Source: a virus (taxonomy: Duplodnaviria; Heunggongvirae; Uroviricota; Caudoviricetes). Taken from it: a DNA stretch of 34,209 nt. Position 1 is the first letter of the stretch; each line of letters opens with the position of its first letter. The stretch lies in the IMG/VR virus record IMGVR_UViG_2648501321_000004, one strand, 5' to 3'. The notes under the pieces were generated by a model that was given only the letters and a program-made list of their open reading frames with translations, was not told where the DNA came from and made no database searches. Of this stretch, positions 3,191-34,209 are shown one piece after another. Made by a program: the position numbers and the translations under genes.

Positions 3191-6100
3191 TACCGATATG
3201 CTCCACTTAACCGACCACCATCACGGGCCTGCTGTTGCATAAAGTCCGCTGCCGCTTTTTTCCCGAGGTCATAAACCACCTTCAGGGCAGCCGGACCTAT
3301 CTGCCCGTTCGTGCCATCGTTATTGATCTCGATGTTGTACTGCGGGGCAAACATCGCCATACCTGAACCACCAATATCCGCCACAACCCCCAGCTTACCG
3401 TCAGCACCACGACGCAGTGGCAGAATGGCTTCAGGTCCCGCTTCCCCCATCACACCCGCGCCTTTTGCAAAAGCAAAAAACGTCGGACGGTTAACCACCG
3501 TGCCACTGTAACGACTCAAATCAGCAGACTGATAAATCCCCCCATTGGCATTCAGGGAAAGGCTGCTGAGATCAAATCCCAGTACACTGCCAATCCCTTT
3601 TATCGATTTCATCATGGTTGCCTGCGCCAGGATTTTCGCCATATCTGACAGCACAGAAGAGGTGAAGGATTTGAAATTGAGTTTGCCGGTAGTGACAAAA
3701 GTTGCCAGGCCATTTCCCATGTTGCTGAAGGCTGACGAGAACACCTGTTCTGCTGTTCCTGCCGTATTATCTGCATCCACGGTAAAATCCTGAAATGCAC
3801 GCAGGACTCCGTTTTTCCAGTTACCCTGCACAACTTCAAGCTGTTGCCAGTAACGGCGATTCTCATTCAGTTGTCGGTTCAGGCTCTCCGTCAGCGCCTG
3901 CTCGGCCTTTCTGTAGTCATCCGTGTTATATGTCCCTTTCTGCTCACTATCCCGCCTCAACTGCTCCAGCTGTTGCTGGTATTTCTGGCGAAGACTCAGT
4001 TGTACCTGATATCGCTGCCGCTGCTGATCACCCATACCCACCGTGGCGATATCCAGGTCATGTTGCTGACGCTGAGCGCGCTCTTCTTCAGCCAGTTGAC
4101 TGGTCAGCTGAATTGTTTTTTTCTTCAGCTCGTTGAGTGCCGTCTGTTTCTGAAGCTCCTGCTGTTTTACATCCAGCAGCGTCAGTGCCTGAATCAGTTC
4201 ATCTTTACGGGCCAGCACACTCTTTTCATCTGCCGTCAGTTTTTTCCCGTCCAGGTCGCTGATGCGCTGCTGCAGAGCCAGAAGCTGTTTATGCGCTTCT
4301 GTCATCCTTTCCGTGGCAATGCCTGCTGACTGTCTGGCAGCAGCAATCTGTCCTTCCACCTGTGCCTGTTGCTGACTGTACTGCAGCAATAACCGGGTGG
4401 CCTCATCATTACGGGTTTCGCGTGTTTTTTTCTTACCGGATGCCTGGGCTTTCTCGTAACGTTCATTTTCACGTTGTATCGCCGCATCCCTGACAGCCTG
4501 ATCGGCGTACTGCATGGCATTAATACGCGCAATTTCACGCTGATGTCGTGCTGCTTCCGTTTCATTCATCCGGTTCAGTGCAGCATTTTCAGCATTACGG
4601 CGTTTCTGTTGCTCCTGATAATTCCGCTCTGCCTGCTCTTTTGCATCCTGCAAATCCTTCTGGCGTTTTTTCTCCTGAAGATCGTTAAGACGCTGCTGAT
4701 CGTATTCAACCTGAGAAGATGATGCCGTCCAGGGGAGTCTTTTCGCCCGCGACACTTTCTCCTGCAAAGTGGCAATCTGCGCATCCAGCGAATCTTCACG
4801 ACCAATATTCATGGCCGCATCCCAGAACTGCTTCCACCAGTCAGACAAAGTTTGCAGCGTACTGCCCAGCGCATTGAGGTTATTATCAATATCCGCAGTA
4901 CGCCGACCGGTTTCCTCTGCCAGTGCAGACATGGCTATCCGTGCCGCATCACTGGACCGCCCCTGCTCTCCAAGGACGCGTATCTGCTCAAGCTGAGTGG
5001 CAGTAAGAAAATGCAGCTCATTGTCCAGAGACTTCGCGGCATTTACAGGATCATCCTTCAGCCGCTTAAACTGATTTATGGTATCGCTGACCGACTGGCC
5101 AACCGATCGCTCCATCTGTGCGGCAGCTCTCGCCACCATACCGATATCGTTTCCACGAAATGCACCACTCCCCACCACCTGAGCCAGCGCACCGGCTGCA
5201 GCATGTTGCGTGATACCATTCCCGGAAATAGCACGACTGAGCGTCCACAGCTGCCCGGCAGTGACTCCGGCATAATGCCCCGTCAGCGACAGCTGGCGGT
5301 TAAATTCTTCCCCCTCCTTCTGACCGTCATACCAGGCTTTACCCAGGCCATAGACAGCCGCGGCAATACCGCCAATAACCCCGCCAAGCATCATGCCTTT
5401 CGGTGACATCAATGTGTCTATCCACCCGGCACGGTTAGCCAGCGTTATTCCGGATCCCCTCAGCGCCCCTAAATTGCCGCGGGCCAGTTCACCTATCAGA
5501 ACGCCTATCTCCTGACGGGCCGCTGCACTTTTCAGCCCCAGCGAATGCGTGGCTTTTCCTGCCTGCTCCATTTTGCGGATATACACTTCTGCAGCACTGC
5601 TTACCCCCAGCTGGGCAGCCTTAGCACGAAGCAACTCAGAAGAAGAAAGATTCTGGCGGGTTGCCTGCTCTTTAAGCTGACGGATAAACGCCACTTTCTG
5701 TCGGGTAGCCTCTTCCTCAGCCTGTGTAAGAACACGGGTTTTCGCCGTAACCTCAGAAATCAGCGCCAGATAATCCTGCTGACCAATCCCGCCACTGTTT
5801 CTGGCCTGTCGGATCTGCTGCTGAATACGCTGTAATTCCTGCAGACCCGCACTGGCCTGTTTCACACTGTCAATCTGACGATAAAACGCAGCAGCCGCTT
5901 TATCCTGAGCCTCCGCCAGAGCCATGGCCTGCGCCTGTTCCTCGCGCATTTTCTGGCTCAGCGCCTCCATACGCTGGCGGGTTTTCTCCACCTCGCGGGC
6001 CATGCGTTCATGAGCCTGTGCGTTCTTCTCCACCGTCTGCGCATGGACGGATGCGGCTGTTGCAGCCGAAGACGCCGCCTGCGTTGTCTGCCGGGCGGCC

Positions 6101-12913: not shown

Positions 12914-13125
12914 CAGAACCTCGCCAGCCGGTACCCGGGATGCCCACGTCGTCGTGTAATCAGAGCCGCAAGGCGGCGCTCCCACTCCTGCCGCCCCTGC
13001 CGGATCTCAGATAAGTTTTCCATGGTCATCTGCTGACCATTAAAAGTGACGGATTTTCCGTCCAGCACCGCCATTTCAGCTTCCGTATAACGCTGAATCA
13101 TGGCTTCAATATCATTCTGATTCAT
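12913..13125 (-). CDS. W: Head-tail joining protein W
   Basis: 70 aa, MNQNDIEAMIQRYTEAEMAVLDGKSVTFNGQQMTMENLSEI..RRRGHPGYRLARF, resembling lambda gpW (68 aa). ATG at 13125 overlaps the terminase stop (ATGA) with GGAGG upstream. Confidence 0.75.
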   Translation of the reverse strand: MNQNDIEAMIQRYTEAEMAVLDGKSVTFNGQQMTMENLSEIRQGRQEWERRLAALITRRRGHPGYRLARF

Positions 13126-15221
13126 AACCATCCTCCGGAAGTCAGCCAGGGGTTAACATCGTCAGTTACTGTTTTCTTCCGTTTTTGTTTTTTAACAGGC
13201 GTGGATACCGGTTCCGGTGAGGGTGACGGTTCGGTACTGTCCGGGACACACTCCAGCCAGGTTTCCCGGCTCGCCCACTCCGGTGCATCCGGCCAGCGGA
13301 TCTTTTCGTATCCATGCAGAATGACCAGAGCCTCGGCATACACCATCAGGTCAAAAGCTTCGTTGGCACCGCGACCCGGCTTACTCCATTTCCCGTCACT
13401 GCTCCGCTCTTCATACGTCAGTTCGTCGTAAAACCAGCTCCCCAGCCAGTCAGGGAAATGCACATAGCCGGGACCTGGCGAGTTACGCCATAACGCGTTA
13501 TTCACCCGGTCTTTCAGGGCATCCGTCTGAAGAAGCCAGAGCGGCACATCACCTGCGGCCTGCGCCCGTCGGCCCGTTCGTCCGGTGTTATCAGGGAATG
13601 TACGGCTGATCAGTTTTGCGCGCCGGATGCTGTCGCCCTTAAACAGGTAAATACGTTTACCAAGGCCATCACGACGGCAACGACGCCAGAATTTATAGGC
13701 ATTATCAGTGACCCCGTCTTCACCGCCGGAGTCCACCGCCATTGCCATAAGTCGCATTTGTTGAGAAGGATCGGAGGCCAGCGGCCAGCTTTTATGAAAA
13801 ACATCCGTCAGCAGGACATCCCAGTCTTCCGGATAGCTGGCCGGATCAATTCGCTGGCTCTCCCCGTCGCAGTCACTGCGCAATGACTGCGTGATGTTGT
13901 AACGATCAATAATCCAGCGTTCGCCACGACTGCCATAGCCTGTTACCTGAACCACAAAACGGCGATGACGTCCCGCCTGCACATCCACTGTCGCCACAAG
14001 GAAATTAACGCCATCCGGCACACTGCGGGAAGGAACTGGCTCTGCCCGCTGCTCAAGCAGTTCACTTTTTCGTTGCTCCATGTTGGCACGAGGAAGATAA
14101 GGCAATCCCCAGTCGGTGTTGATAACCGCCCTGAGTGTTTCTTCGCTTCCTGTCGCTTCATACTCCTGTTCTGCAGTCAGTAATTTGTAAACCAGTTGCG
14201 CCCAGGTCTGATACGCAGCAGCTGGCCCTTCCATCCAGAAACTGGCGATACGGGAGCGGCGCGGTTCACCGGAAACGTTGCCGTTACGATCAATGACCTG
14301 ACCTTCACGCAACCAGACTCCTGCACTATTGAGCTCACGCTTTTTCTCCGCAGTGATAATGCCGCTGCAGTGCGGGCAAAGTAGATACGCCGCCTCACTG
14401 GCTTTAAAGGGATCCGGTTCATTACGGTAGCCGGTCATGGCATCCATGGCTGGCTGAAAATATTCACCGCAGTGCGGACATGGCCAGTACCAGCGGCGGC
14501 GGTCACCACGATTGTAAAGGGAAAGAATACCAGTCGTCGGTGGCGCTTCATGAGGCGACTTACGTCGCCATTTGCTGTCGCAGATGTCACGTCCCGGCGA
14601 GCTCTCCACCAGAGTCATCCCGGCGGACATAAATGTGGTGGTACGTTTTGAGGCCAGGGAGAAACCATCACCCTCGCTGTCGATATTCTCCGGAAAACGG
14701 TCGTAATCGGTTAAGGCGACAAACCGGTAATCCGACGACGACATAATGTTGACCGAGGGCCAACCAATTTTAAGGAACGAGCCATCCCTGAACGTCTTAT
14801 CATGAACATTATTGTCGTTACGACGTGGACTCATTCTTTTCTTTACCGCCGCACTGCTTCTGAACGTTCTGTCGAGGCGCTTTTTAGAATGCTCGCGGGC
14901 CTTATCTTCGGTCATCTGCACAACGAGCATGTCCGAAGGATCGCAAACGATGGTATAGACAATCCATCCATCGATCAGACCAATGGTCTTCCCTGTTCGC
15001 GCAGGACCAACAAAAATCACCGCATCGTATTCACGCGATGCCAGGCAGTTCATGGGCTCAATGATGTAGGGTGTCAGTTCAGGATCCCATGGCACCGAGT
15101 TACCAGCCCCCTTGGGAACACGCATGAATTTTTTAACAGCCTCCGAAATCGGCATGCGACGTGGTGGGGAAAATCCTGCCGATATGTCCCTTCCCAAATT
15201 TCGGGCTGATGAAAAACCCAT
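13122..15221 (-). CDS. A: Terminase large subunit (lambda gpA family)
   Basis: 699-aa ORF directly after Nu1, with a strong AGGAGG Shine-Dalgarno 6 nt upstream of the ATG; size and position match lambda gpA. Confidence 0.9.
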   Translation of the reverse strand: MGFSSARNLGRDISAGFSPPRRMPISEAVKKFMRVPKGAGNSVPWDPELTPYIIEPMNCLASREYDAVIFVGPARTGKTIGLIDGWIVYTIVCDPSDMLVVQMTEDKAREHSKKRLDRTFRSSAAVKKRMSPRRNDNNVHDKTFRDGSFLKIGWPSVNIMSSSDYRFVALTDYDRFPENIDSEGDGFSLASKRTTTFMSAGMTLVESSPGRDICDSKWRRKSPHEAPPTTGILSLYNRGDRRRWYWPCPHCGEYFQPAMDAMTGYRNEPDPFKASEAAYLLCPHCSGIITAEKKRELNSAGVWLREGQVIDRNGNVSGEPRRSRIASFWMEGPAAAYQTWAQLVYKLLTAEQEYEATGSEETLRAVINTDWGLPYLPRANMEQRKSELLEQRAEPVPSRSVPDGVNFLVATVDVQAGRHRRFVVQVTGYGSRGERWIIDRYNITQSLRSDCDGESQRIDPASYPEDWDVLLTDVFHKSWPLASDPSQQMRLMAMAVDSGGEDGVTDNAYKFWRRCRRDGLGKRIYLFKGDSIRRAKLISRTFPDNTGRTGRRAQAAGDVPLWLLQTDALKDRVNNALWRNSPGPGYVHFPDWLGSWFYDELTYEERSSDGKWSKPGRGANEAFDLMVYAEALVILHGYEKIRWPDAPEWASRETWLECVPDSTEPSPSPEPVSTPVKKQKRKKTVTDDVNPWLTSGGWL

Positions 15222-15229
15222 TATTCCTC

Positions 15230-15757
15230 CTAGAGACTCTCTCCTTCCTCATCAGGAATTAATTCAGCAGCACAAGCCTCGTAGGATTTTTCCTGAAGAG
15301 TGTATCGCAGGTCATCAATGGCCTGCTGTACAACGCCGACGGCCTGAGGAGTCAGGGCGCAATCGCGTTCAAGAACATCCGGAATTGTCTCCAGAACCTG
15401 GACGACAGCCTTTCTCATGGACGAATAGACGATGACTACTTCATCAACGGGGATGAGTTTTCGCTGCTCCTTTTCCAGCTTGATCCTTTCATTTTCAGAC
15501 TGGTACCAATCCTTTCTCTCTTTCGGCTCCATACGGGATGGATCATGAACAGAGTCTGCTGCCTCATGCTTCACACTAAACAGGGCAGGCCCGACATGCT
15601 GCAGGGCGTAAACGGGGTTCCCCCTGACAGTCGCTGCCACAGGAGTGTTGGCCGCGAGGAGCCGTTTTTTTACTGTGTCCCGGTGAAGCCCAAAGGCCTC
15701 GGCGATTTTAAAAACACTCCAGTAATAAGCATCACCGATCCCGCTCACATTTGACAT
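15230..15757 (-). CDS. nu1: Terminase small subunit (Nu1-like)
   Basis: N-terminal HTH-like segment (FKIAEAFGLHRDTVKKRL) and C-terminal ELIP motif as in lambda Nu1; lies about 190 bp from the cosN-like sequence. ATG at 15757 preferred over 15769. Confidence 0.75.
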   Translation of the reverse strand: MSNVSGIGDAYYWSVFKIAEAFGLHRDTVKKRLLAANTPVAATVRGNPVYALQHVGPALFSVKHEAADSVHDPSRMEPKERKDWYQSENERIKLEKEQRKLIPVDEVVIVYSSMRKAVVQVLETIPDVLERDCALTPQAVGVVQQAIDDLRYTLQEKSYEACAAELIPDEEGESL

Positions 15758-15769
15758 AAGCAACTCCAT

Positions 15770-15990
15770 CTGGCAGGTGAAAATCAGGTTTATTTATATA
15801 TTTCAATTAATTGCAAACTGGTCTAATGACAGGGAGAATAAAATATTGTACAGGTGAAAAGAGAAATAACTTTTAATTATCAATAAATTACCTAACATGC
15901 TGCCGCCGCCATGGAAATGCAAAAACTAGCCTTTTTCCGCGACGCTCCCGCCCCGTGAGAGCTCAGGTCATCAGAAGGACCCACATTAAA
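15770..15990. other. Cohesive-end site (cos); cosN-like 12-mer at 15942..15953
   Basis: Minus strand reads CACG-GGGCGGGAGCGT-CGCGG, closely resembling the lambda junction ACG-GGGCGGCGACCT-CGCGGG, with lambda-like spacing to Nu1 and an AT-rich cosB-like region in between. Confidence 0.55.
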
Positions 15991-16101
15991 GGCAGAATAT
16001 TCACTCTGATATTACGCATTGTTTTGCTTTTGTAGATTCGCAATTTACGGTAAAAATACTTTTGCTATTTCTTCGTACCATAAATGCACAGGAGTATCTT
16101 C

Positions 16102-16422
16102 ATGTCCATAAAGGTATTCAGAAGTGACCTTCAGACTGAGAGTGAATCAGACTATCGTAATTGGCTTGGCGATAATCCAGACGGATATGTTGTCAATGCA
16201 TTGAAGCGAACCAGAGGTAAAGGTAATAAATCTGACGAACGCTTTACCAGAATCCATAGAGCATCTTGCAAAACGATTAATCCCTTGAAACGCAAGATCG
16301 ATAAAACAGGATTCACAACTGGAGATTATCAAAAAATATGCTCAACCAACTTCATCAATGTTGAAAATGAAGCAAAGAAAATGACAGGTCTGACAAGCAT
16401 CATCAAATGTCGATGCATCTAA
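16102..16422 (+). CDS. Hypothetical protein (106 aa, basic, no signal peptide), moron at the position lambda uses for bor
   Basis: ATG at 16102 with AGGAG 7 nt upstream; AT-rich; opposite strand to the late operon. No family recognised. Confidence 0.5.
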   Translation: MSIKVFRSDLQTESESDYRNWLGDNPDGYVVNALKRTRGKGNKSDERFTRIHRASCKTINPLKRKIDKTGFTTGDYQKICSTNFINVENEAKKMTGLTSIIKCRCI

Positions 16423-16639
16423 AGCGTCATGTAATTAACATGTTCACAACACTCTCCGGGTGACCGCTAATGCTGTTGTCAGCCAAAAACTCTACGTTTC
16501 GATTATGCCAATTTTGCACCGCCCGATGCCGATAAATGCGAAAATCCGGCGACTATGTAGCGTAATCAAATCAACGAGATACCACTTTCATGAAATAATT
16601 ATCATCTGTCAGTTCAATATCAATGTTGAGAGAGAATAA

Positions 16640-16792
16640 ATGAGAGGAATGCCAAGAGGAAGTCGAGGACAGAGGGCTGTCCAATCAACTGCAAGAAGAG
16701 CAAGACGATCAAATGCCAGCCATTCTGACCAATTAGGATGCCTGGCACTAATCATCGTTGGCCTGATATTTATCTATTTCATGGCTAATTAG
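16640..16792 (+). CDS. Small 50-aa protein with Arg-rich N-terminus and C-terminal transmembrane helix (below ORF-track cutoff)
   Basis: atg aga gga atg cca aga ... gct aat tag, translating to MRGMPRGSRGQRAVQSTARRARRSNASHSDQLGCLALIIVGLIFIYFMAN; GAGAG upstream of the ATG. Confidence 0.4.
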   Translation: MRGMPRGSRGQRAVQSTARRARRSNASHSDQLGCLALIIVGLIFIYFMAN

Positions 16793-16802
16793 CAAAGATT
16801 GC

Positions 16803-17246
16803 TCATCTTACACACTGCGTGCGAATGTATTGCTGCAAGCCTCGGATCATTTTATCACTGGTTTCAATCCGCTTTCTAAGGGTGAAATAATCCCGTTGAG
16901 CGGTGTCAGTAAGTCTGGGGCTGGTGCCATCATCCACGCCGGAGGCGGCGGTGATTTTATGCATGTCTGGACAGACAGCTTTGACGCGCAGCCACTTACG
17001 CCCAGCAGAAACATCAGCACGAAGACTTTCGATAGTCGCGTTAGCATCAGCAAGCTCCTTTGTGTATCTGGCGTCGAGTTCTGCTACATCACGTTGACGC
17101 TTCTGCATATCAGCGATAGTGGATGCGGCTTTGTCGCGCTGCTCTTTGTAGGCGATGGCGTTATCACGGTAATGATTAACAGCCCATAACAGGCAGACGA
17201 TGATGCAGATAATCAGAGCGGAGATAATCGCGGTTACTCTGCTCAT
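16803..17246 (-). CDS. Rz: Spanin inner-membrane subunit Rz
   Basis: [34 protein letters not shown]... matches lambda Rz closely; ATG at 17246 overlaps the R stop (ATGA). Confidence 0.85.
16847..17047 (-). CDS. Rz1: Spanin outer-membrane lipoprotein Rz1, embedded in Rz in another frame
   Basis: [23 protein letters not shown]... has a lipobox (LLGVSGC) and a PPPPAW proline-rich segment like lambda Rz1; AGGAG upstream of the ATG at 17047. Confidence 0.8.
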
Positions 17247-17740
17247 TGCTGCCCCCACAAACAGACTTCACGCTCAATCTCACGACGAGTCATCAGGCCT
17301 TTCCATTGCTTACCGCCAGCGTATATCCAGCGACGTAGCTGGTCACATGCGCCTTTGATATCGCCCTGGTTTATTTTGCGAAGAAGCGTCGATGTTCTGA
17401 AATTGCCAGCACCCACGTTGTAGACGAACGAGTAAAGAGCGCCGCGCGTTGTTTCCGGTATATCGACTTTGATGTACGGGTTAATTTGTCTGGCAACCGT
17501 GGCAAGGTCTTTATTCAGGAGGGCTTTGCATTCTGCTTCGGTATACGTTTTACCGAGCATGATGTCTTTTCCGGTGTGTCCGTGACATACAGTCCATACG
17601 CCAACGATATCTTTGTATGGTATGTAGCTGACACCTTCCAGGCCATCGTCACCACTTGGGCCAGTGATTAACACTGATGCTATAGCAATTGCTCCGCCAC
17701 CAATAGCAGCAGCAACAGCTTTTCGTAATGATGGAGGCAT
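17243..17740 (-). CDS. R: SAR endolysin (phage-21 R21-type lysozyme)
   Basis: 165 aa with a Gly/Ala-rich N-terminal signal-anchor-release segment ([20 protein letters not shown]); near-identical to phage 21 R as recalled. ATG overlaps the holin stop. Confidence 0.9.
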
Positions 17741-17955
17741 TATCCACCTCTCGCAGCCTTGCGCTTATCTTCTTTAATCTTGAAATAAAGGTTTGTCAGG
17801 TACGTCAGCAGGCCAAATACCAGACTACCCAGCACACCTATTGCCGCCCACTGTGAGGGCGTGACTTTATCGAGCAACTGTAAAAACCAGTACCCGGCAC
17901 TACCTGCTGAGGTGCCATAGGCGACACCCGTTGTTAACTTATCCATGGATTTCAT
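17740..17955 (-). CDS. S: Pinholin S (phage-21 type) with dual-start motif MKSMDK
   Basis: From ATG 17955: [71 protein letters not shown], two TM segments; second start at 17946 would give the shorter holin form. GAGGTGG Shine-Dalgarno. Confidence 0.85.
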
Positions 17956-18022
17956 AACCCCACCTCGCAGATGCGGGTGCTGTGTAATGGAAATAAAAAG
18001 GCCACCTGACGTGGCCACCAGA

Positions 18023-19075
18023 TTATTTCCCCACCAGCTCGTTTATCTCTTTCACTGTCTGGTTAAACCGCTCTGACTCAAGCTCAACACCTAAGGCCCG
18101 ACGCCCCAGCGCCATTGCTGCTTTTATTGTGGAACCGGATCCCATAAAAAAATCAGCAACCAGATCACCAGGTCGACTACTGGCATTGATTATTTGCCTG
18201 AGCATATCCGCCGGTTTCTCACACGGATGTTTACCCGGGTAGAACTGAACGGGTTTATGCATCCAGACATCGGTATAAGGCACGGAGACTGATACGGAGA
18301 AATAGCGCCGGAGAGATTTAAACTCATCCAGCAATTCAGAATATTTGCGATTCAGTGAATCATAAGATGCCACCAGCTGGTGGTGTGGTTGTTCCAGTTG
18401 TTGTTCCTGAAACTTCTCTGCCGCTATACGGGAAAACAGTGCCTGTAACTTCCGATAGTCAGCCTCATTCGGCAACTGCCACTGACTGGCACCAAACCAG
18501 TGGGAAACCATATTTTTCTTACCTGTGGCTTCGGCAATTTGTTTTGCCGTTATACCCAGTTCGGCACGAGCATCCCTGAAATACGATATCAGCGGTGCCA
18601 TTATGTGCTGTTTGAGTTCCCTTTCTTTTGCCGCATAGCCGTCACTTTTGCCGCGATATGGCCCCTGGTAATGTTCAGCAAACAGAACGCGCTCTGTGGC
18701 AGGAAAATATGCGCGCAGACTTTCTTTATTACACCCATTCCAACGTCCGGACGGCTTCGCCCAGATGATATGGTTAAGCACGTTGAAACGTTCACGCATC
18801 ATGATCTCAATATCAGATGCCAGGCGATGCCCACAGAACAGGTAAAGGCTTCCGGCAGGTTTTAACACCCGCCAGAACTGGGCCAGACAGTGGTCCAGCC
18901 ACTTAAGGTAATCTTCGTCCCCTTTCCACTGATTGTCCCAGCCGTTGGGTTTCACCTTGAAGTACGGCGGATCGGTAACAATCAGGTCAATGGAATCATC
19001 AGGCAGGGACTGAATAAAATGCAGGCAATCAGCGTTGATTAAATCAACACTGTTTATTTTTACAGTATTTTTCAT
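18023..19075 (-). CDS. DNA N6-adenine methyltransferase (DPPY motif), orphan
   Basis: 350 aa with a DPPY catalytic motif (LIVTDPPYF) and SAM-binding-like segments; no adjacent restriction endonuclease gene. Confidence 0.8.
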
Positions 19076-19684: not shown

Positions 19685-20611
19685 ATGAAAGTTAGAAGCA
19701 TAGGATTTACAATAAATAACAATAACAAAAATATTAATACCGTTGACGTAATGAATGCTTTTATCAACGCATCAAACAGAGAACACAGTCGCACAGACTA
19801 TACTCGTAAAATTCTCATTTCGGATGTGAATGATTTCTATTATGGATTAGTTGTCACATTCAGAAACCAAAAAAAGAACTGTAAGTCGCAATTTGTTGAT
19901 GGTAAATTCCAGCTTAAAATTGAAGATCTTCAAGGAAGTGACAAACTTGCTAATTTCAACTTTTTCTTAATTAAAAAATCTAATCTTTCTGGTCTCTATA
20001 TGTATCACCACGGTTCATGCAGTCTGAACACTCTCTTTTCTCATTTAGAAACAATAAGTAATGAATTTATCAGAAATCAAAATAAAGAAGAAATAAAAAA
20101 ACTTGGTGATAAACCAAAACAAAAAGAAGTAACTGCAATAAATAAAAAATACAAAGAAAGACTGACTTTCAGCCTTATGACAAATAAAAACAACATTCAG
20201 AGTGTTTTATGTCAATTCAAAGAGATTAAAAGCACAAGCTTTAAATTTAATTATATAGATTTTAAAGGTGGACCAATGACTGCGCTTGAACAATTTGTTA
20301 ACACCACCACAATAGATATGAATTTTAATTCTAGCGACAGAACAAAAGTGCAACAACTATCTCAGAATCTTTCAAATATTTATAATTCTATGAGTGGAGT
20401 TACTAAAGCACAGGTTATTGCAGTAAACCATGCAGGAATAGAAAAAACCATTGATTTTATGAACTGCCCTGTTTTTTTTGAAACATACGATTTCGATATA
20501 ATTGCCGATAAAGTCAATGGATTGACAAACGATAATTATACAACAAACTCTGTTTTTGATATGATAAAAGAAGAAATGCTGAACGGGACGAATAAAAATG
20601 CCTTTATATGA
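19685..20611 (+). CDS. Cassette gene A: 308-aa soluble Asn/Lys-rich protein of unknown function (candidate sensor/effector of a defence-like module)
   Basis: Long ORF in a strongly AT-rich island on the strand opposite all flanking phage genes; no TM segment; no family recognised. Confidence 0.7.
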   Translation: MKVRSIGFTINNNNKNINTVDVMNAFINASNREHSRTDYTRKILISDVNDFYYGLVVTFRNQKKNCKSQFVDGKFQLKIEDLQGSDKLANFNFFLIKKSNLSGLYMYHHGSCSLNTLFSHLETISNEFIRNQNKEEIKKLGDKPKQKEVTAINKKYKERLTFSLMTNKNNIQSVLCQFKEIKSTSFKFNYIDFKGGPMTALEQFVNTTTIDMNFNSSDRTKVQQLSQNLSNIYNSMSGVTKAQVIAVNHAGIEKTIDFMNCPVFFETYDFDIIADKVNGLTNDNYTTNSVFDMIKEEMLNGTNKNAFI

Positions 20612-21146
20612 ATGGCTAATAAATAAAAGATTGAGGTATCAGTACCTTACACTGCTTGCATTCTCGATCCTGGCATTGCTTGCACTTTACCTATTGTACA
20701 GAAACACACCTAAAGTAAGTGTTAACTTTTTTGATTTTTATCATAAAAACTTACGAGGCTATCTCTTCTCCGGTTTTATTTCCGTGGGCTCATTTTTATT
20801 GAGCCTGCATACCTTTGTCATAATAAATTTACGCGATAAGGTTTTTGCAACTCAGGAATATAAGGAAATTTATAGCATTGCCACTGGTATACCTATTGAC
20901 AAAATCAATGATAGTGTACTTTATAAACCTTTAGACAATTTATCCTCATTTATTAATACATCAATATTATGTTCTATCACAACAGCAATTGCACAATTCA
21001 CTATTGGACTTTCAACTAATTTATATGCATGCTTATTTTGCGTATGGCTTGCAATACTAACGGTATTTCTTTTATTACATTGCCTCATCATAATCAGACA
21101 AAATATTAAAATCTTATTAAAGCAACAGAGAAAAAAAGGGGGGTAA
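20598..21146 (+). CDS. Cassette gene B: 182-aa integral membrane protein with about four TM helices (candidate membrane effector)
   Basis: Hydrophobic segments YLTLLAFSILALLALYLLY, LFSGFISVGSFLLSLHTFVIINL, ILCSITTAIAQFTIGL and LYACLFCVWLAILTVFLLLHCLIII; start overlaps the gene A stop by 14 nt. Confidence 0.7.
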   Translation: MPLYEWLINKRLRYQYLTLLAFSILALLALYLLYRNTPKVSVNFFDFYHKNLRGYLFSGFISVGSFLLSLHTFVIINLRDKVFATQEYKEIYSIATGIPIDKINDSVLYKPLDNLSSFINTSILCSITTAIAQFTIGLSTNLYACLFCVWLAILTVFLLLHCLIIIRQNIKILLKQQRKKGG

Positions 21147-21158: not shown

Positions 21159-21500
21159 TTACAACATTGAAAGCACACCATCCAGAAAACCAAGAGCTGT
21201 TTGCAACTCTTTTCTTATTGTCCCATCAGAACACTTCTGCTTCTTTGCAATAGTTCTTAGTGAGATGCCGATAACAAAATGAGCAATAACCAACTCATAC
21301 TCTTCGGGCTTATATTTCCGCAATCGCGCAACACAGCTGTCAATCATGATTCCTTCATCATCATCGCATTGTTGGCGTGTTTTCTTTCCATGAGGTAGTA
21401 AACCTTTAAACCCTGCAGCAACAGGCTGCCAGTCCACACCACTGTTATCTGCTGCAGCCCATGCACCCCAGCGGTCCAATACTTCATACATATCACGCAT
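21159..21500 (-). CDS. Q: Late-gene antiterminator Q (short Q family)
   Basis: MRDMYEVLDRWGAWAAADNSGVDWQPVAAGFKGL...QCDDD...CSDG... matches the conserved pattern of short Q proteins of lambdoid prophages. ATG at 21500 has GGAG 9 nt upstream; track start at 21515 is a GTG. Confidence 0.75.
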   Translation of the reverse strand: MRDMYEVLDRWGAWAAADNSGVDWQPVAAGFKGLLPHGKKTRQQCDDDEGIMIDSCVARLRKYKPEEYELVIAHFVIGISLRTIAKKQKCSDGTIRKELQTALGFLDGVLSML

Positions 21501-21517
21501 CAACTTTCTCCACAAAA

Positions 21518-27390: not shown

Positions 27391-28083
27391 ATGAACATAG
27401 GAAACCGAGTCAGACAACTTCGCCAGGCGAAGAACATGAAAATCGCCGATCTCGCTGAAGCAATAGGAGTGGATGCGGCGAATATCTCACGCCTGGAAAC
27501 AGGTAAGCAGAAACAATTCACTGAACAAGCCCTGAGTAATATTGCCAGGAGCTTAGGTGTTGATATTGCTGATCTCTTTACCTCAGACGTCAAAAGTAAT
27601 ACTGTATGTAAAAACAGTATTAGTGAGGATGTTGCGCAGGTGAAGGATGTATTCCGTATTGAAATGCTGGATGTCAGTGCCAGTGCGGGAAATGGCCTTA
27701 TCCAGGGCGGTGATGTCATTGATGTGATTCATGCCATTGAATACAGAACTGATAATGCTGTATCGATGTTTGGCGGACGGCCAGCCAATCACATTAAAGT
27801 TATCAACGTTCGTGGGGACAGTATGTGTCCAACCATTGAGCCAGGAGATCTCATCTTCGTTGATGTCAGTATCAATCAGTTTGATGGAGATGGTATCTAT
27901 GTATTTGGTTTTGATGATAAAATTTATGTCAAACGACTGCAAATGATACCTGACAAACTACTGGTGATTTCTGATAACCAGATTTACCGTGAATGGGGAA
28001 TTACCAGCGAAAATGAACACCGGTTTATGGTCTTTGGAAAGGTCTTAATCAGCCAGTCACAAACCCTTAAGCGACACAATTAA
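27391..28083 (+). CDS. cI: CI-type prophage repressor (HTH plus S24 LexA-like peptidase domain)
   Basis: N-terminal HTH (MKIADLAEAIGVDAANISRLETGKQ) and C-terminal autocleavage domain with GDSM serine motif and VKR lysine motif. Confidence 0.9.
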   Translation: MNIGNRVRQLRQAKNMKIADLAEAIGVDAANISRLETGKQKQFTEQALSNIARSLGVDIADLFTSDVKSNTVCKNSISEDVAQVKDVFRIEMLDVSASAGNGLIQGGDVIDVIHAIEYRTDNAVSMFGGRPANHIKVINVRGDSMCPTIEPGDLIFVDVSINQFDGDGIYVFGFDDKIYVKRLQMIPDKLLVISDNQIYREWGITSENEHRFMVFGKVLISQSQTLKRHN

Positions 28084-31361: not shown

Positions 31362-31711
31362 TGGAGCCATACAGCCTCACACTCGATGAGGCCTGTCATT
31401 TTCTCAAGATATCCAGACCGACTGCCATTAACTGGATACGCACAGGGCGTCTTCAGGCAACACGCAAAGATCCCACTAAGAATAAATCTCCTTACCTCAC
31501 AACACGACAAGCCTGCATTGCGGCTCTTCAGTCTCCGCTGCATACTGTCCAGGTGAGCGCGGGTGATGGCATAACAGAGGAAAGAAAATGTCACTCTTCC
31601 GCAGAGGTGAAATATGGTACGCCAGTTTCACATTGCCGAACGGTAAAAGATTTAAACAGTCTCTTGGAACAAAGGACAAAAGGCAGGCGACAGAACTCCA
31701 TGACAAGCTAA
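31361..31711 (+). CDS. xis: Excisionase (P22 Xis-like, 116 aa)
   Basis: 116-aa ORF ([31 protein letters not shown]...) immediately upstream of and overlapping int; start overlaps the yfdT stop (TAATG). Confidence 0.65.
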
Positions 31712-32751
31712 AGGCTGAAGCATGGCGGGTCAGCAAACTTGGTGAAATACCTGATATAACGTTCGAGGAAGCGTGTGTCAGGTGGCTTGAAGAGAAAGCA
31801 CATAAAAAATCACTGGACGATGACAAAAGCCGGATCGGATTCTGGCTTCAACATTTCGCAGGAATGCAACTAAGAGACATTACTGAATCAAAAATTTATT
31901 CAGCAATGCAGAAAATGACGAACCGGCGTCATGAGGAAAACTGGAAACTCAGGGCAGAAGCATGCAGAAAAAAAGGGAAACCTGTTCCAGAATACACGCC
32001 AAAACCAGCGTCCGTTGCAACGAAGGCTACGCATCTTTCATTTATAAAGGCCCTACTAAGAGCCGCAGAGCGTGAATGGAAAATGCTGGATAAGGCACCA
32101 ATTATTAAAGTGCCTCAACCAAAGAATAAACGGATCCGCTGGCTGGAGCCCCATGAAGCACAAAGGCTGATTGATGAATGTCCGGAGCCATTAAAGTCTG
32201 TTGTTGAATTTGCACTGGCAACAGGCTTAAGACGCTCGAACATCATCAACCTTGAATGGCAACAAATAGATATGCAGCGCCGGGTGGCATGGATAAACCC
32301 GGAAGAGAGTAAATCAAACCGCGCAATCGGCGTTGCGCTGAATGATACTGCATGTCGCGTTTTGAAAAAACAAATCGGGAATCATCACCGTTGGGTATTT
32401 GTGTACAAGGAAAGCTGTACCAAACCAGACGGAACGAAAGCGCCAACAGTAAGGAAGATGCGGTATGACGCAAACACAGCCTGGAAAGCGGCGCTGAGAC
32501 GGGCTGGTATTGATGATTTCAGATTTCACGACTTGAGACACACCTGGGCAAGTTGGCTGGTTCAAGCCGGAGTCCCGTTGTCAGTGTTACAGGAAATGGG
32601 AGGCTGGGAGTCTATCGAAATGGTTCGTCGATATGCTCACCTTGCACCTAATCACCTTACCGAACACGCACGGCAAATAGACTCGATCCTGAACCCATCG
32701 GTCCCAAATTTGTCCCAGTCAAAAAATAAGGAAGGTACTAATGATGTGTAA
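31588..32751 (+). CDS. int: Tyrosine integrase (P22 Int type)
   Basis: 387 aa with catalytic-region motifs ([15 protein letters not shown]..., EMVRRYAHL); ends 14 nt from the tRNA. Confidence 0.9.
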
Positions 32752-32955: not shown

Positions 32956-34209
32956 TTACGCACGAATGGTGTAATCACCAATGCCGATCCACTTGTAAGT
33001 GGTCAGTGCTTCCAGCCCCATTGGGCCACGCGCGTGGAGTTTTTGTGTGCTTACCGCCACTTCCGCACCCAGACCAAACTGGCCGCCGTCGGTAAAACGC
33101 GTAGAGGCGTTAACGTAAACAGCGGACGAATCCACTTCGTTAACAAAACGCTGGGCGTTGCGCATATCGCGGGTCAGGATCGCATCGGAGTGTTGTGTGC
33201 CGTGTTCACGAATATGGGCGATGGCATCGTCAAGATCGCTGACGATTTTGACGTTCAAATCTAATGACAGAAACTCATCGTCATACTCTTCGGCTTTAAC
33301 AGCAACCACCTTCGCAGGGCCTGCCTGCAACTGCGCCAGTGCAGCTGCATCTGCGTGTAATGTCACGCCGCTTTCCGCCATTTGTTTGCTTAATGCGGGC
33401 AGGAAGCTATCGGCGATGTTTTTATTCACCAGCAACGTTTCAACCGTATTACATGTGCTCGGACGCTGAGTTTTCGCGTTGACGATCACTTTTAATGCTT
33501 CAGCGATCTCTACACTTTCATCAACGTAAATATGGCATACGCCTATACCACCTGTGATCACCGGGATTGTCGACTGTTCACGGCACAGTTTATGCAAACC
33601 AGCGCCACCACGCGGGATCAGCATGTCGATGTATTTATCCATACGCAGCATTTCACTGACCAGCGCACGGTCAGGATTATCAATCGCCTGCACGGCACCC
33701 GCCGGTAAGCCGCAGGATTTCAGGGCGTCCTGAATCACCGCCACCGTTGCAGCGTTAGTGCGACACGTTTCTTTGCCACCGCGCAGGATCACCGCATTAC
33801 CGGTTTTCAGGCACAGCGAAGCGACATCAACCGTCACGTTCGGGCGCGCTTCATAAATCACGCCAATAACCCCCAGCGGTACGCGACGACGCTCAAGACG
33901 CAGGCCGCTGTCCAGTACGCTGCCATCGATTACCTGCCCCACCGGATCGGCGAGGTTACACACCTGGCGCACATCATCGGCAATGCCTTTCAGCCGTGCG
34001 GGCGTCAGTGCCAGACGGTCAAGCATCGCTTCGCCAAGGCCATTGGCACGCGCGTCAGCAACATCCTGGGCGTTAGCGTTGAGGATGATTTCGCTTTGTG
34101 CTTCCAGTTCATCGGCGATTTTTTCCAGCACGCGATTTTTTTCGCGGCTGGAGAGTTGCGCTAATTTATACGAGGCTTGCTTCGCGGCAATGCCCATTTG
34201 TTCCAGCAT
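32956..34209 (-). CDS. proA: Gamma-glutamyl phosphate reductase ProA (host gene)
   Basis: 417-aa [41 protein letters not shown]..., matching enterobacterial ProA; the start codon is at the window edge. Confidence 0.95.

Follow-up and report, generated by a model that had tools for sequence, protein, structure and literature searches.

In lambda-like phages, the gap between the lysis genes and the cohesive-end site (cos) or the terminase genes is a known place for cargo expressed in the lysogen. In lambda itself, this place is taken by bor, a cargo lipoprotein gene that lies between Rz and cos, antisense to the late operon, and is expressed in the lysogen. Here, we analyzed the corresponding slot in a lambda-like E. 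coli prophage, IMG/VR record IMGVR_UViG_2648501321_000004 (34,209 nucleotides, nt; this whole stretch is referred to below as the window). The slot bears a block of about 850 bp which holds two unrelated small genes, both probably real. The first encodes a basic protein of 106 amino acids (aa) and is certainly a gene; it belongs to an unnamed domain family whose longer members are often fused to nucleases. The second encodes a peptide of 50 aa (designated here as pep50), which is likely, on the evidence of its substitution pattern in natural haplotypes, to be a true plus-strand gene.

A cargo block between Rz and cos

The AT-rich module spans positions 15954-16802, from the cos end to the stop of Rz, which ends at 16803. 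At its left border, the minus strand of the window reads GGGCGGGAGCGT, a close variant (9 of 12 bases matching) of the lambda cohesive end, GGGCGGCGACCT. The records of phages Tritos and cdtI both start exactly at the window position 15953; given this start and the cos-like end found at the same point, the stretch from Rz to cos, 15954-16802, forms the right end of the phage genome. At the position of Rz, RefSeq reports a "lysis protein" (16803-17246). The lysis and terminase genes all lie on the minus strand of the window, so that this strand carries the late operon and both plus-strand open reading frames (ORFs) of the block are antisense to the late genes.

The first-pass annotation had described the two genes as AT-rich cargo placed between Rz and cos, in the slot which lambda uses for bor. 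This description holds in position and in base composition: the GC content is 37-42% over 15800-16900 vs. about 50% in the flanks. The same annotation had contrasted the plus strand of the genes with the opposite strand of bor, and this contrast is an artefact of the window orientation; since the late operon here is on the minus strand, the relative orientation is that of bor.

Like a moron, the block differs in base composition from the flanking phage genes, and the content of the slot varies: sibling phages that share cos and the small terminase with this prophage bear other cargo there, namely orf60 in cdtI, and the csp genes, ynfN, gnsB, ybcV and ybcW in Tritos. The block was found in 54 of the 5426 complete E. 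coli genomes, with both ORFs present in every case, and it moves as a unit, at no less than 97.6% identity, among prophages with different terminase and lysis alleles. Taken together, the results allow us to regard it as a typical right-end moron (cargo) in the slot equivalent to that of lambda bor.

Some further observations concern the slot and the copies of the block. In Raoultella prophages (loci L003-L005, 6769-7044, minus strand), a Tad2-like gene (PF11195, anti-Thoeris family) separates Rz from the 106-aa homologue, i.e., in relatives the slot bears counter-defence cargo. On the plus strand of the window, a terminator-like hairpin with a T-run (a consensus match, 16937-16953) lies inside the Rz coding region, about 145 nt past the peptide stop, and could end plus-strand cargo transcripts. 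In one short metagenomic Logan contig (SRR22784957_5984), 1 nt is deleted from the 106-aa gene and 2 nt from the peptide ORF, which points either to a decaying copy of the block or to assembly errors.

The 106-aa protein and its His/Cys domain family

The 106-aa ORF lies exactly where it had first been placed (16102-16422, plus strand), and RefSeq calls a hypothetical protein from the same start; the RefSeq protein WP_000025003 and the window copy are one residue apart (I85L). The start is supported by an AGGAG sequence 7 nt upstream (Table 1), by the RefSeq call and by the conserved N-terminus of the homologues. As initially described, the product is basic (pI 9.66, 21 Lys and Arg vs. 12 Asp and Glu) and has no signal peptide, its N-terminus being not hydrophobic. 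A literature search on the RefSeq accessions found no published mention of them.

A search of 5.8 billion proteins gave 24 clusters of homologues. The full-length ones are 58-69% identical, nearly all of exactly 106 aa, and come from at least seven enterobacterial genera (Escherichia/Shigella, Pseudescherichia, Leclercia, Klebsiella, Citrobacter, Raoultella and Cedecea); F6, Y18, W21, H52, C56, C80, C103 and C105 are among the residues invariant in these close homologues. The gene is under purifying selection. In the prophages of Raoultella, Citrobacter and Cedecea, it occupies the same slot, antisense between an Rz-type lysis gene and the small terminase gene, although these prophages package DNA by Terminase_2, Terminase_4 plus HNH, or Nu1/gpA systems. 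All the loci examined for homologues of this group have the gene in this slot, and four different terminase types are found among the phages concerned. The Raoultella and Citrobacter copies have an extended -10 box TGnTATAAT (TGTTATAAT) about 27 nt before the ATG and a hairpin with a T-run immediately past the stop, and are self-contained transcription units of the classic moron type. A candidate weak promoter can be read from the sequence upstream of the window copy (Table 1), and it was not picked up by the consensus promoter scan. In a Cedecea prophage (L009, about 5880-5915), approximately six tandem GGCGTT units are located some 100 nt upstream of the homologue.

The product had been reported as unrecognized from the sequence alone, and it remained so after the homology and structure searches. 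It had no match in Pfam, PHROGs, PADLOC or NCBIfam. The AlphaFold2 model, a confident one (predicted local distance difference test score, pLDDT, 85), has a beta-alpha-beta-alpha-beta-beta-alpha layout, for which no significant relative was found among solved structures or viral models, and the family profile retrieved nothing from the sequences of the Protein Data Bank (PDB).

The profile of the close homologues, when run against 1.84 billion cluster representatives, revealed a much broader family of 244 clusters (E<=1e-3), the matches covering positions from about 12 to 105. Most of these relatives are stand-alone proteins of 90-110 aa, and the family extends over six or more phyla, including Planctomycetes, Actinomycetota, Chloroflexi, Acidobacteria and others. 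All of 36 distant members share Y18, W21, G28, H52, C56, K78 and C103; at least 90% of them have C80, and the second C-terminal Cys is nearly invariant. The window protein bears the whole family signature: Y..W...G, H-x3-C, K-x-C and a C-terminal C-x(1,2)-C. This conserved His/Cys set would form a putative zinc site.

To characterize the longer relatives, 30 multidomain members of the family were scanned for partner domains. An HNH nuclease was found in 13 of them, NOV_C (a restriction-endonuclease-like domain) in two, and DUF6998, a helix-turn-helix, a protein kinase and an AAA-type ATPase region in one each; the remaining 11 had no significant Pfam partner. The domain is thus often fused to HNH or PD-(D/E)xK-type nucleases, and it stands at the N-terminus of the fusions. 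The HNH parts match the PADLOC models of type IV methyl-directed restriction enzymes, and the AAA-type relative also matches the candidate defence family PDC-S02.

Members of the family were also found on plasmids. In Salmonella and E. coli, 4.6-kb Col156 MOBQ plasmids have two cargo genes, one of which is a stand-alone copy (48% identical), and an HNH fusion resides on a Vibrio plasmid beside DUF3265, a GNAT acetyltransferase and a toxin/antitoxin pair; these are genes typical of integron cassettes, and the surroundings look like a cassette array. The only other cargo gene of the Col156 plasmids (NC_011093.1, 1596-1931, plus strand) encodes 111 aa that begin with a signal-like sequence, MKRIVFSILLPLSFHANA, and bear no relation to the 50-aa peptide.

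Since the domain stands alone on mobile elements and at the N-terminus of nucleases elsewhere, it may serve as a recognition module, most likely for nucleic acids, and the prophage copy may bind rather than catalyze in conflicts between mobile elements. We regard this as possible, though short of probable.

The 50-aa peptide and the reading of its locus

The second ORF was found precisely at the coordinates first given for it (16640-16792, plus strand), and the initial description of its product as a peptide with an Arg-rich N-terminus and a single C-terminal transmembrane segment agrees with our reading. There are eight Arg among residues 1-23; the Arg-rich part of about 30 residues is followed by one strongly hydrophobic segment, LGCLALIIVGLIFIYFM, with a mean Kyte-Doolittle hydropathy of 2.77, predicted to form a single transmembrane helix. 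The length of 50 codons is by itself no proof of a gene, because several equally long ORFs are present in the same AT-rich stretch.

The evidence for pep50 as a gene comes from the comparison of haplotypes. The 33 copies of the block collapse into 15 haplotypes, which differ at 13 sites within pep50. Nine of these sites fall on codon position 3, and all nine changes are synonymous; the four non-synonymous ones are V40F (inside the helix), D30G, L32S and F44I. The ratio of non-synonymous to synonymous polymorphism (pN/pS) is 0.14, and the excess of synonymous changes is significant in the named frame (binomial p=0.0008), thus indicating purifying selection on the peptide. The ORF is intact in 14 of the 15 haplotypes, the exception being one short low-quality contig, while the adjacent spacer tolerates an indel. 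In this 217-nt spacer, the variable sites are spread over the codon phases, and two haplotypes have a 1-nt deletion; an upstream plus-strand ORF that is in frame with pep50 (16460-16639) was considered and rejected as non-coding because of this indel and the lack of a phase bias. RNA folding showed that the spacer (z-score -0.41) and the region past the peptide fold no better than shuffled sequence, and the Rfam search gave no match at threshold and one sub-threshold chance hit. Synonymous diversity in pep50 (9 of about 36 sites) is several-fold above the diversity of the spacer and of the 106-aa gene, each at about 3%, possibly owing to recombination between older alleles or to a constraint on the neighbouring sequence.

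Like its neighbour, the peptide had been called unrecognized, which the searches bear out. It has no match in Pfam, PHROGs, PADLOC or NCBIfam, no homologue among 5.8 billion proteins, and is absent from a collection of 15 billion. The tblastn search of phage records and a scan of one genome per species gave nothing, and a metagenome scan with a wobble-degenerate pattern returned only four near-identical copies. The peptide is thus found only in near-identical E. coli-type prophage DNA, and in all 54 E. coli genomes with the block the RefSeq annotation at this place is "none".

The same DNA can be read on the other strand, where a minus-strand ORF of 48 codons (16609-16755) overlaps pep50. If this ORF were a small late-operon gene located just past Rz, the coding signal would belong to it, and pep50 would be a by-product. 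The two ORFs have aligned wobble positions, so that seven of the nine silent sites are silent in both frames. Moreover, the minus ORF begins 48 nt past Rz and would be automatically transcribed with the late operon, the pep50 frame is rich in codons rare in E. coli (AGA, AGG, CGA, CTA, ATA), and pep50 is never selected by the automatic gene callers, which report the minus ORF as a hypothetical protein on no fewer than 417 public contigs; this counts against our assignment. The plus frame is favoured by site 16729, where a C>T change is silent in pep50 (Asp30) but turns TGG into TGA in the minus ORF, placing a stop at codon 9 (Trp9). This nonsense change is carried by two complete genomes, E. 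coli EC27 and EN-1077, with pep50 intact in both; since the genomes are complete and their haplotypes differ, the stop is neither a sequencing error nor very recent. In line with this, the C-terminal part of the minus ORF that lies outside pep50 has undergone amino-acid changes only (I46L, N48S), and its pN/pS is 0.24, in addition to the nonsense mutation, vs. 0.14 for pep50.

A simulation, in which the protein of one strand was kept, its codons were resampled synonymously and the ORFs on the opposite strand were counted, pointed in the same direction. With pep50 kept, an antisense ORF of at least 48 aa arose in 19% of the resamplings; with the minus-strand protein kept, 3.8% gave a plus-strand ORF of at least 50 aa, and 0.1% such an ORF with a segment of transmembrane grade. 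No transmembrane segment or other recognizable feature is present in the 48-aa product, and a search with it returned near-identical, truncated or frameshifted copies only, which allow no deeper phylogenetic test. We therefore find it unlikely that the minus strand is the coding one; the gene callers are probably on the wrong strand at 16609-16755.

One could also suppose that the 106-aa gene is the only real one, and that pep50 and its antisense partner are both non-coding, the phase bias being due to chance or to a constraint at the RNA level. The whole case for pep50 is made of 13 variable sites, p rises to about 0.03 in a phase test that allows any phase, synonymous diversity is oddly high in comparison with the neighbouring sequence, and neither the RefSeq annotation of the 54 genomes nor the homology searches beyond nearly identical DNA offer anything at this place; against this stand the synonymous excess in the named frame, the integrity of the ORF next to a spacer with an indel, the absence of a stable RNA structure in the spacer or past the peptide, and the coherence of the product, in which a positive-inside basic tail is joined to one strong transmembrane helix, and we consider the supposition improbable.

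The first-pass annotation had further suggested that the pair may be a toxin/antitoxin-like or small-effector module, and this suggestion found no support. Two variants can be envisaged: a type I-like toxin kept under an antisense late RNA, or a 106-aa protein that neutralizes the peptide. In its size and hydrophobicity, pep50 resembles the type I toxins Hok, Ldr, TisB and Ibs, and it also has an overlapping antisense transcript, because it converges on Rz with a 10-nt gap and any late transcript must run antisense to it. An additional antisense RNA could come from a promoter-like site at 16878-16849 of the minus strand (a consensus match), and both genes are together in all 54 of the E. coli genomes. 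No terminator lies between them, so that they could be co-transcribed, a point that speaks against the explanation proposed below.

However, the constant co-occurrence in E. coli is explained by the movement of the block as one nearly identical unit, and the pairing is not conserved outside this lineage: in prophages of Raoultella, Citrobacter and Cedecea and on Col156 plasmids, no peptide gene adjoins the 106-aa homologue. Nor do the genes form the tight operon with conserved pairing that is expected of type II systems, being separated by 217 nt without overlap. Neither product falls into the toxin/antitoxin families of Pfam or NCBIfam or matches any PADLOC model, the domain family of the 106-aa protein is linked to nucleases and not to antitoxins, and promoter-like sites are no more frequent here than in shuffled sequence. 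As to the type I toxins, pep50 shares no homology with them, and its layout, with the charge in a long N-terminal Arg-rich tail and the helix at the C-terminus, is the reverse of that of the Hok, Ldr and TisB-type toxins. No dedicated antisense RNA or other dedicated regulator of pep50 was evident in the analyzed sequence. The peptide could nonetheless be harmful when overproduced. With the pairing unconserved outside E. coli and a 217-nt gap between the genes, we consider a toxin/antitoxin module to be quite improbable.

Prophage context and comparison with known systems

The positions of the features discussed here and of other genes of the prophage are collected in Table 1.

Table 1. Features of the window in and around the cargo block (window coordinates).
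Feature	Position	Strand	Remarks
Large terminase, gpA-type	13122-15221	-	
Small terminase subunit, DUF1441 type	15230-15769	-	first late gene past cos; Pfam DUF1441, E=2e-44
cos-like cohesive-end sequence	15942-15953	-	left border of the cargo module; minus strand reads GGGCGGGAGCGT
Possible weak promoter of the 106-aa gene	16024-16057	+	TTGTAG, 15-16 nt, TAAAAAT; candidate read from the sequence
Shine-Dalgarno AGGAG	16090-16094	+	7 nt upstream of the 106-aa gene start
106-aa basic protein with His/Cys (putative zinc) domain	16102-16422	+	RefSeq-annotated, conserved
Spacer between the genes, 217 nt	16423-16639		no terminator, notable RNA structure or coding signal
48-aa ORF, probably a by-product	16609-16755	-	wobble positions aligned to pep50
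pep50, probable 50-aa peptide gene	16640-16792	+	unannotated everywhere; substitution pattern in 15 haplotypes
Rz (i-spanin)	16803-17258	-	right border of the cargo module; Pfam Phage_lysis, E=6e-39
Rz1, embedded in Rz	16847-17053		lipobox LLGVSGC read in the embedded ORF
Lysozyme	17243-17740	-	Pfam Phage_lysozyme
Holin	17740-18018	-	Pfam P21 holin
DNA methylase	18023-19075	-	
Q	21159-21515	-	
CI-type repressor	27391-28083	+	
Integrase	31588-32751	+	near one prophage end

The assignment of the small terminase subunit is also supported by the record of phage Tritos, where the homologue of this gene bears the same label. The integrase gene is followed by a host gene of the aldehyde-dehydrogenase family (32956-34209, minus strand), presumably proA-like, which marks one prophage end. 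Two overlapping ORFs of 308 and 182 aa (14 nt in common) lie antisense to the late operon at 19685-21146 on the plus strand, in the interval from Q to the DNA methylase gene; neither was matched in Pfam or PADLOC. Phage cdtI also has two antisense ORFs in this slot. The pair constitutes a second unexplained cargo module, larger than the 15954-16802 block.

For the block itself, we propose the following explanation, which is held as a whole with moderate confidence. The region from cos to the Rz stop is a right-end moron block, antisense to the late operon, with two unrelated genes. The first encodes a stand-alone copy of an unnamed alpha/beta domain, in which an invariant His and a set of three or four conserved Cys would bind zinc; since single-chain HNH and PD-(D/E)xK-type nucleases of other bacteria have the same domain as their N-terminal module, its function would be recognition, most likely of nucleic acid. 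The protein would be made in the lysogen and would play a non-enzymatic part in the conflicts of mobile elements, that of a binder, a decoy or an exclusion factor. The second gene would encode a tail-anchored inner-membrane peptide whose polybasic N-terminus faces the cytoplasm, and it would have joined the block only in the E. coli lineage.

Several observations weigh against this explanation. The step from nuclease fusion to nucleic-acid binding is an indirect one, and about half of the multidomain partners are without a known domain. The window copy of the 106-aa gene has weak promoter candidates only, with no canonical promoter and no terminator. As to pep50, it is without a homologue beyond about 97% DNA identity, so that its case depends on the 13 variable sites; the two Shine-Dalgarno sequences found at its locus are both weak; and one lineage (L031/L032) has four amino-acid changes in the peptide vs. 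the window copy, three of them (D30G, L32S and F44I) unique to this lineage.

A bolder version is conceivable, in which single-chain HNH and PD-(D/E)xK nucleases of bacteria would use an undescribed, zinc-dependent recognition domain as their sensor, and the 106-aa protein would be the founding member of this domain on phages and plasmids. Mobile elements would carry the sensor alone as a decoy or blocker, which would represent a new counter-defence or exclusion family, while pep50 would be a true small membrane protein of the prophage, assigned to the wrong strand in hundreds of assemblies. In this full form we consider it doubtful.

What is new here is modest: an unnamed nuclease-linked domain family, and a small membrane protein that is missing from the annotations and has support at the population level. 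The block is an ordinary kind of phage cargo, and nothing known is overturned. With its stand-alone members on prophages and small mobilizable plasmids and its nuclease fusions elsewhere, the domain family is a reasonable candidate for defence and counter-defence screens, and one of the relatives examined has an anti-Thoeris-like gene in the same gap. In turn, pep50 provides a concrete case of how haplotype comparison may expose an unannotated small protein where the gene callers are probably on the wrong strand.

Among the described proteins, the architecture of pep50 may be compared with that of ElaB, YqjD and YgaM, the tail-anchored inner-membrane proteins of E. coli that have a cytoplasmic N-terminal part and a single C-terminal anchor. 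The likeness is in architecture only, since those proteins are of about 100 aa and contain DUF883, while pep50 has 50 aa and no detectable domain. The 106-aa protein may be compared with the N-terminal recognition domains of single-chain HNH (type IV-like) restriction nucleases, since its domain holds this N-terminal position in 13 of the 30 multidomain relatives.

The lipoprotein encoded by bor itself has no counterpart in the block. Neither product matched the Bor family in Pfam, NCBIfam or PHROGs, and neither has a signal peptide ending in a lipobox Cys. The "QLGC" of pep50 was considered as a possible lipobox and rejected: its Cys34 follows 30 polar residues, and the hydrophobic stretch comes past the Cys. 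Homology to bor or to another lipoprotein, which the first-pass annotation had named as evidence against its own view, was thus not found.

With the morons of HK97 and the lambdoid phages, which are self-contained transcription units inserted between conserved genes, the block shares a GC content unlike that of the flanks and a variable presence among siblings, and the distant copies of the 106-aa gene likewise bear an extended -10 box and a terminator of their own; the window copy differs from these morons in having no canonical promoter or terminator and in combining two genes in one block. Compared with lambda bor (Bor/Iss), the block is AT-rich, has two genes and shows no sequence relation, but it occupies the same slot in the same antisense orientation.

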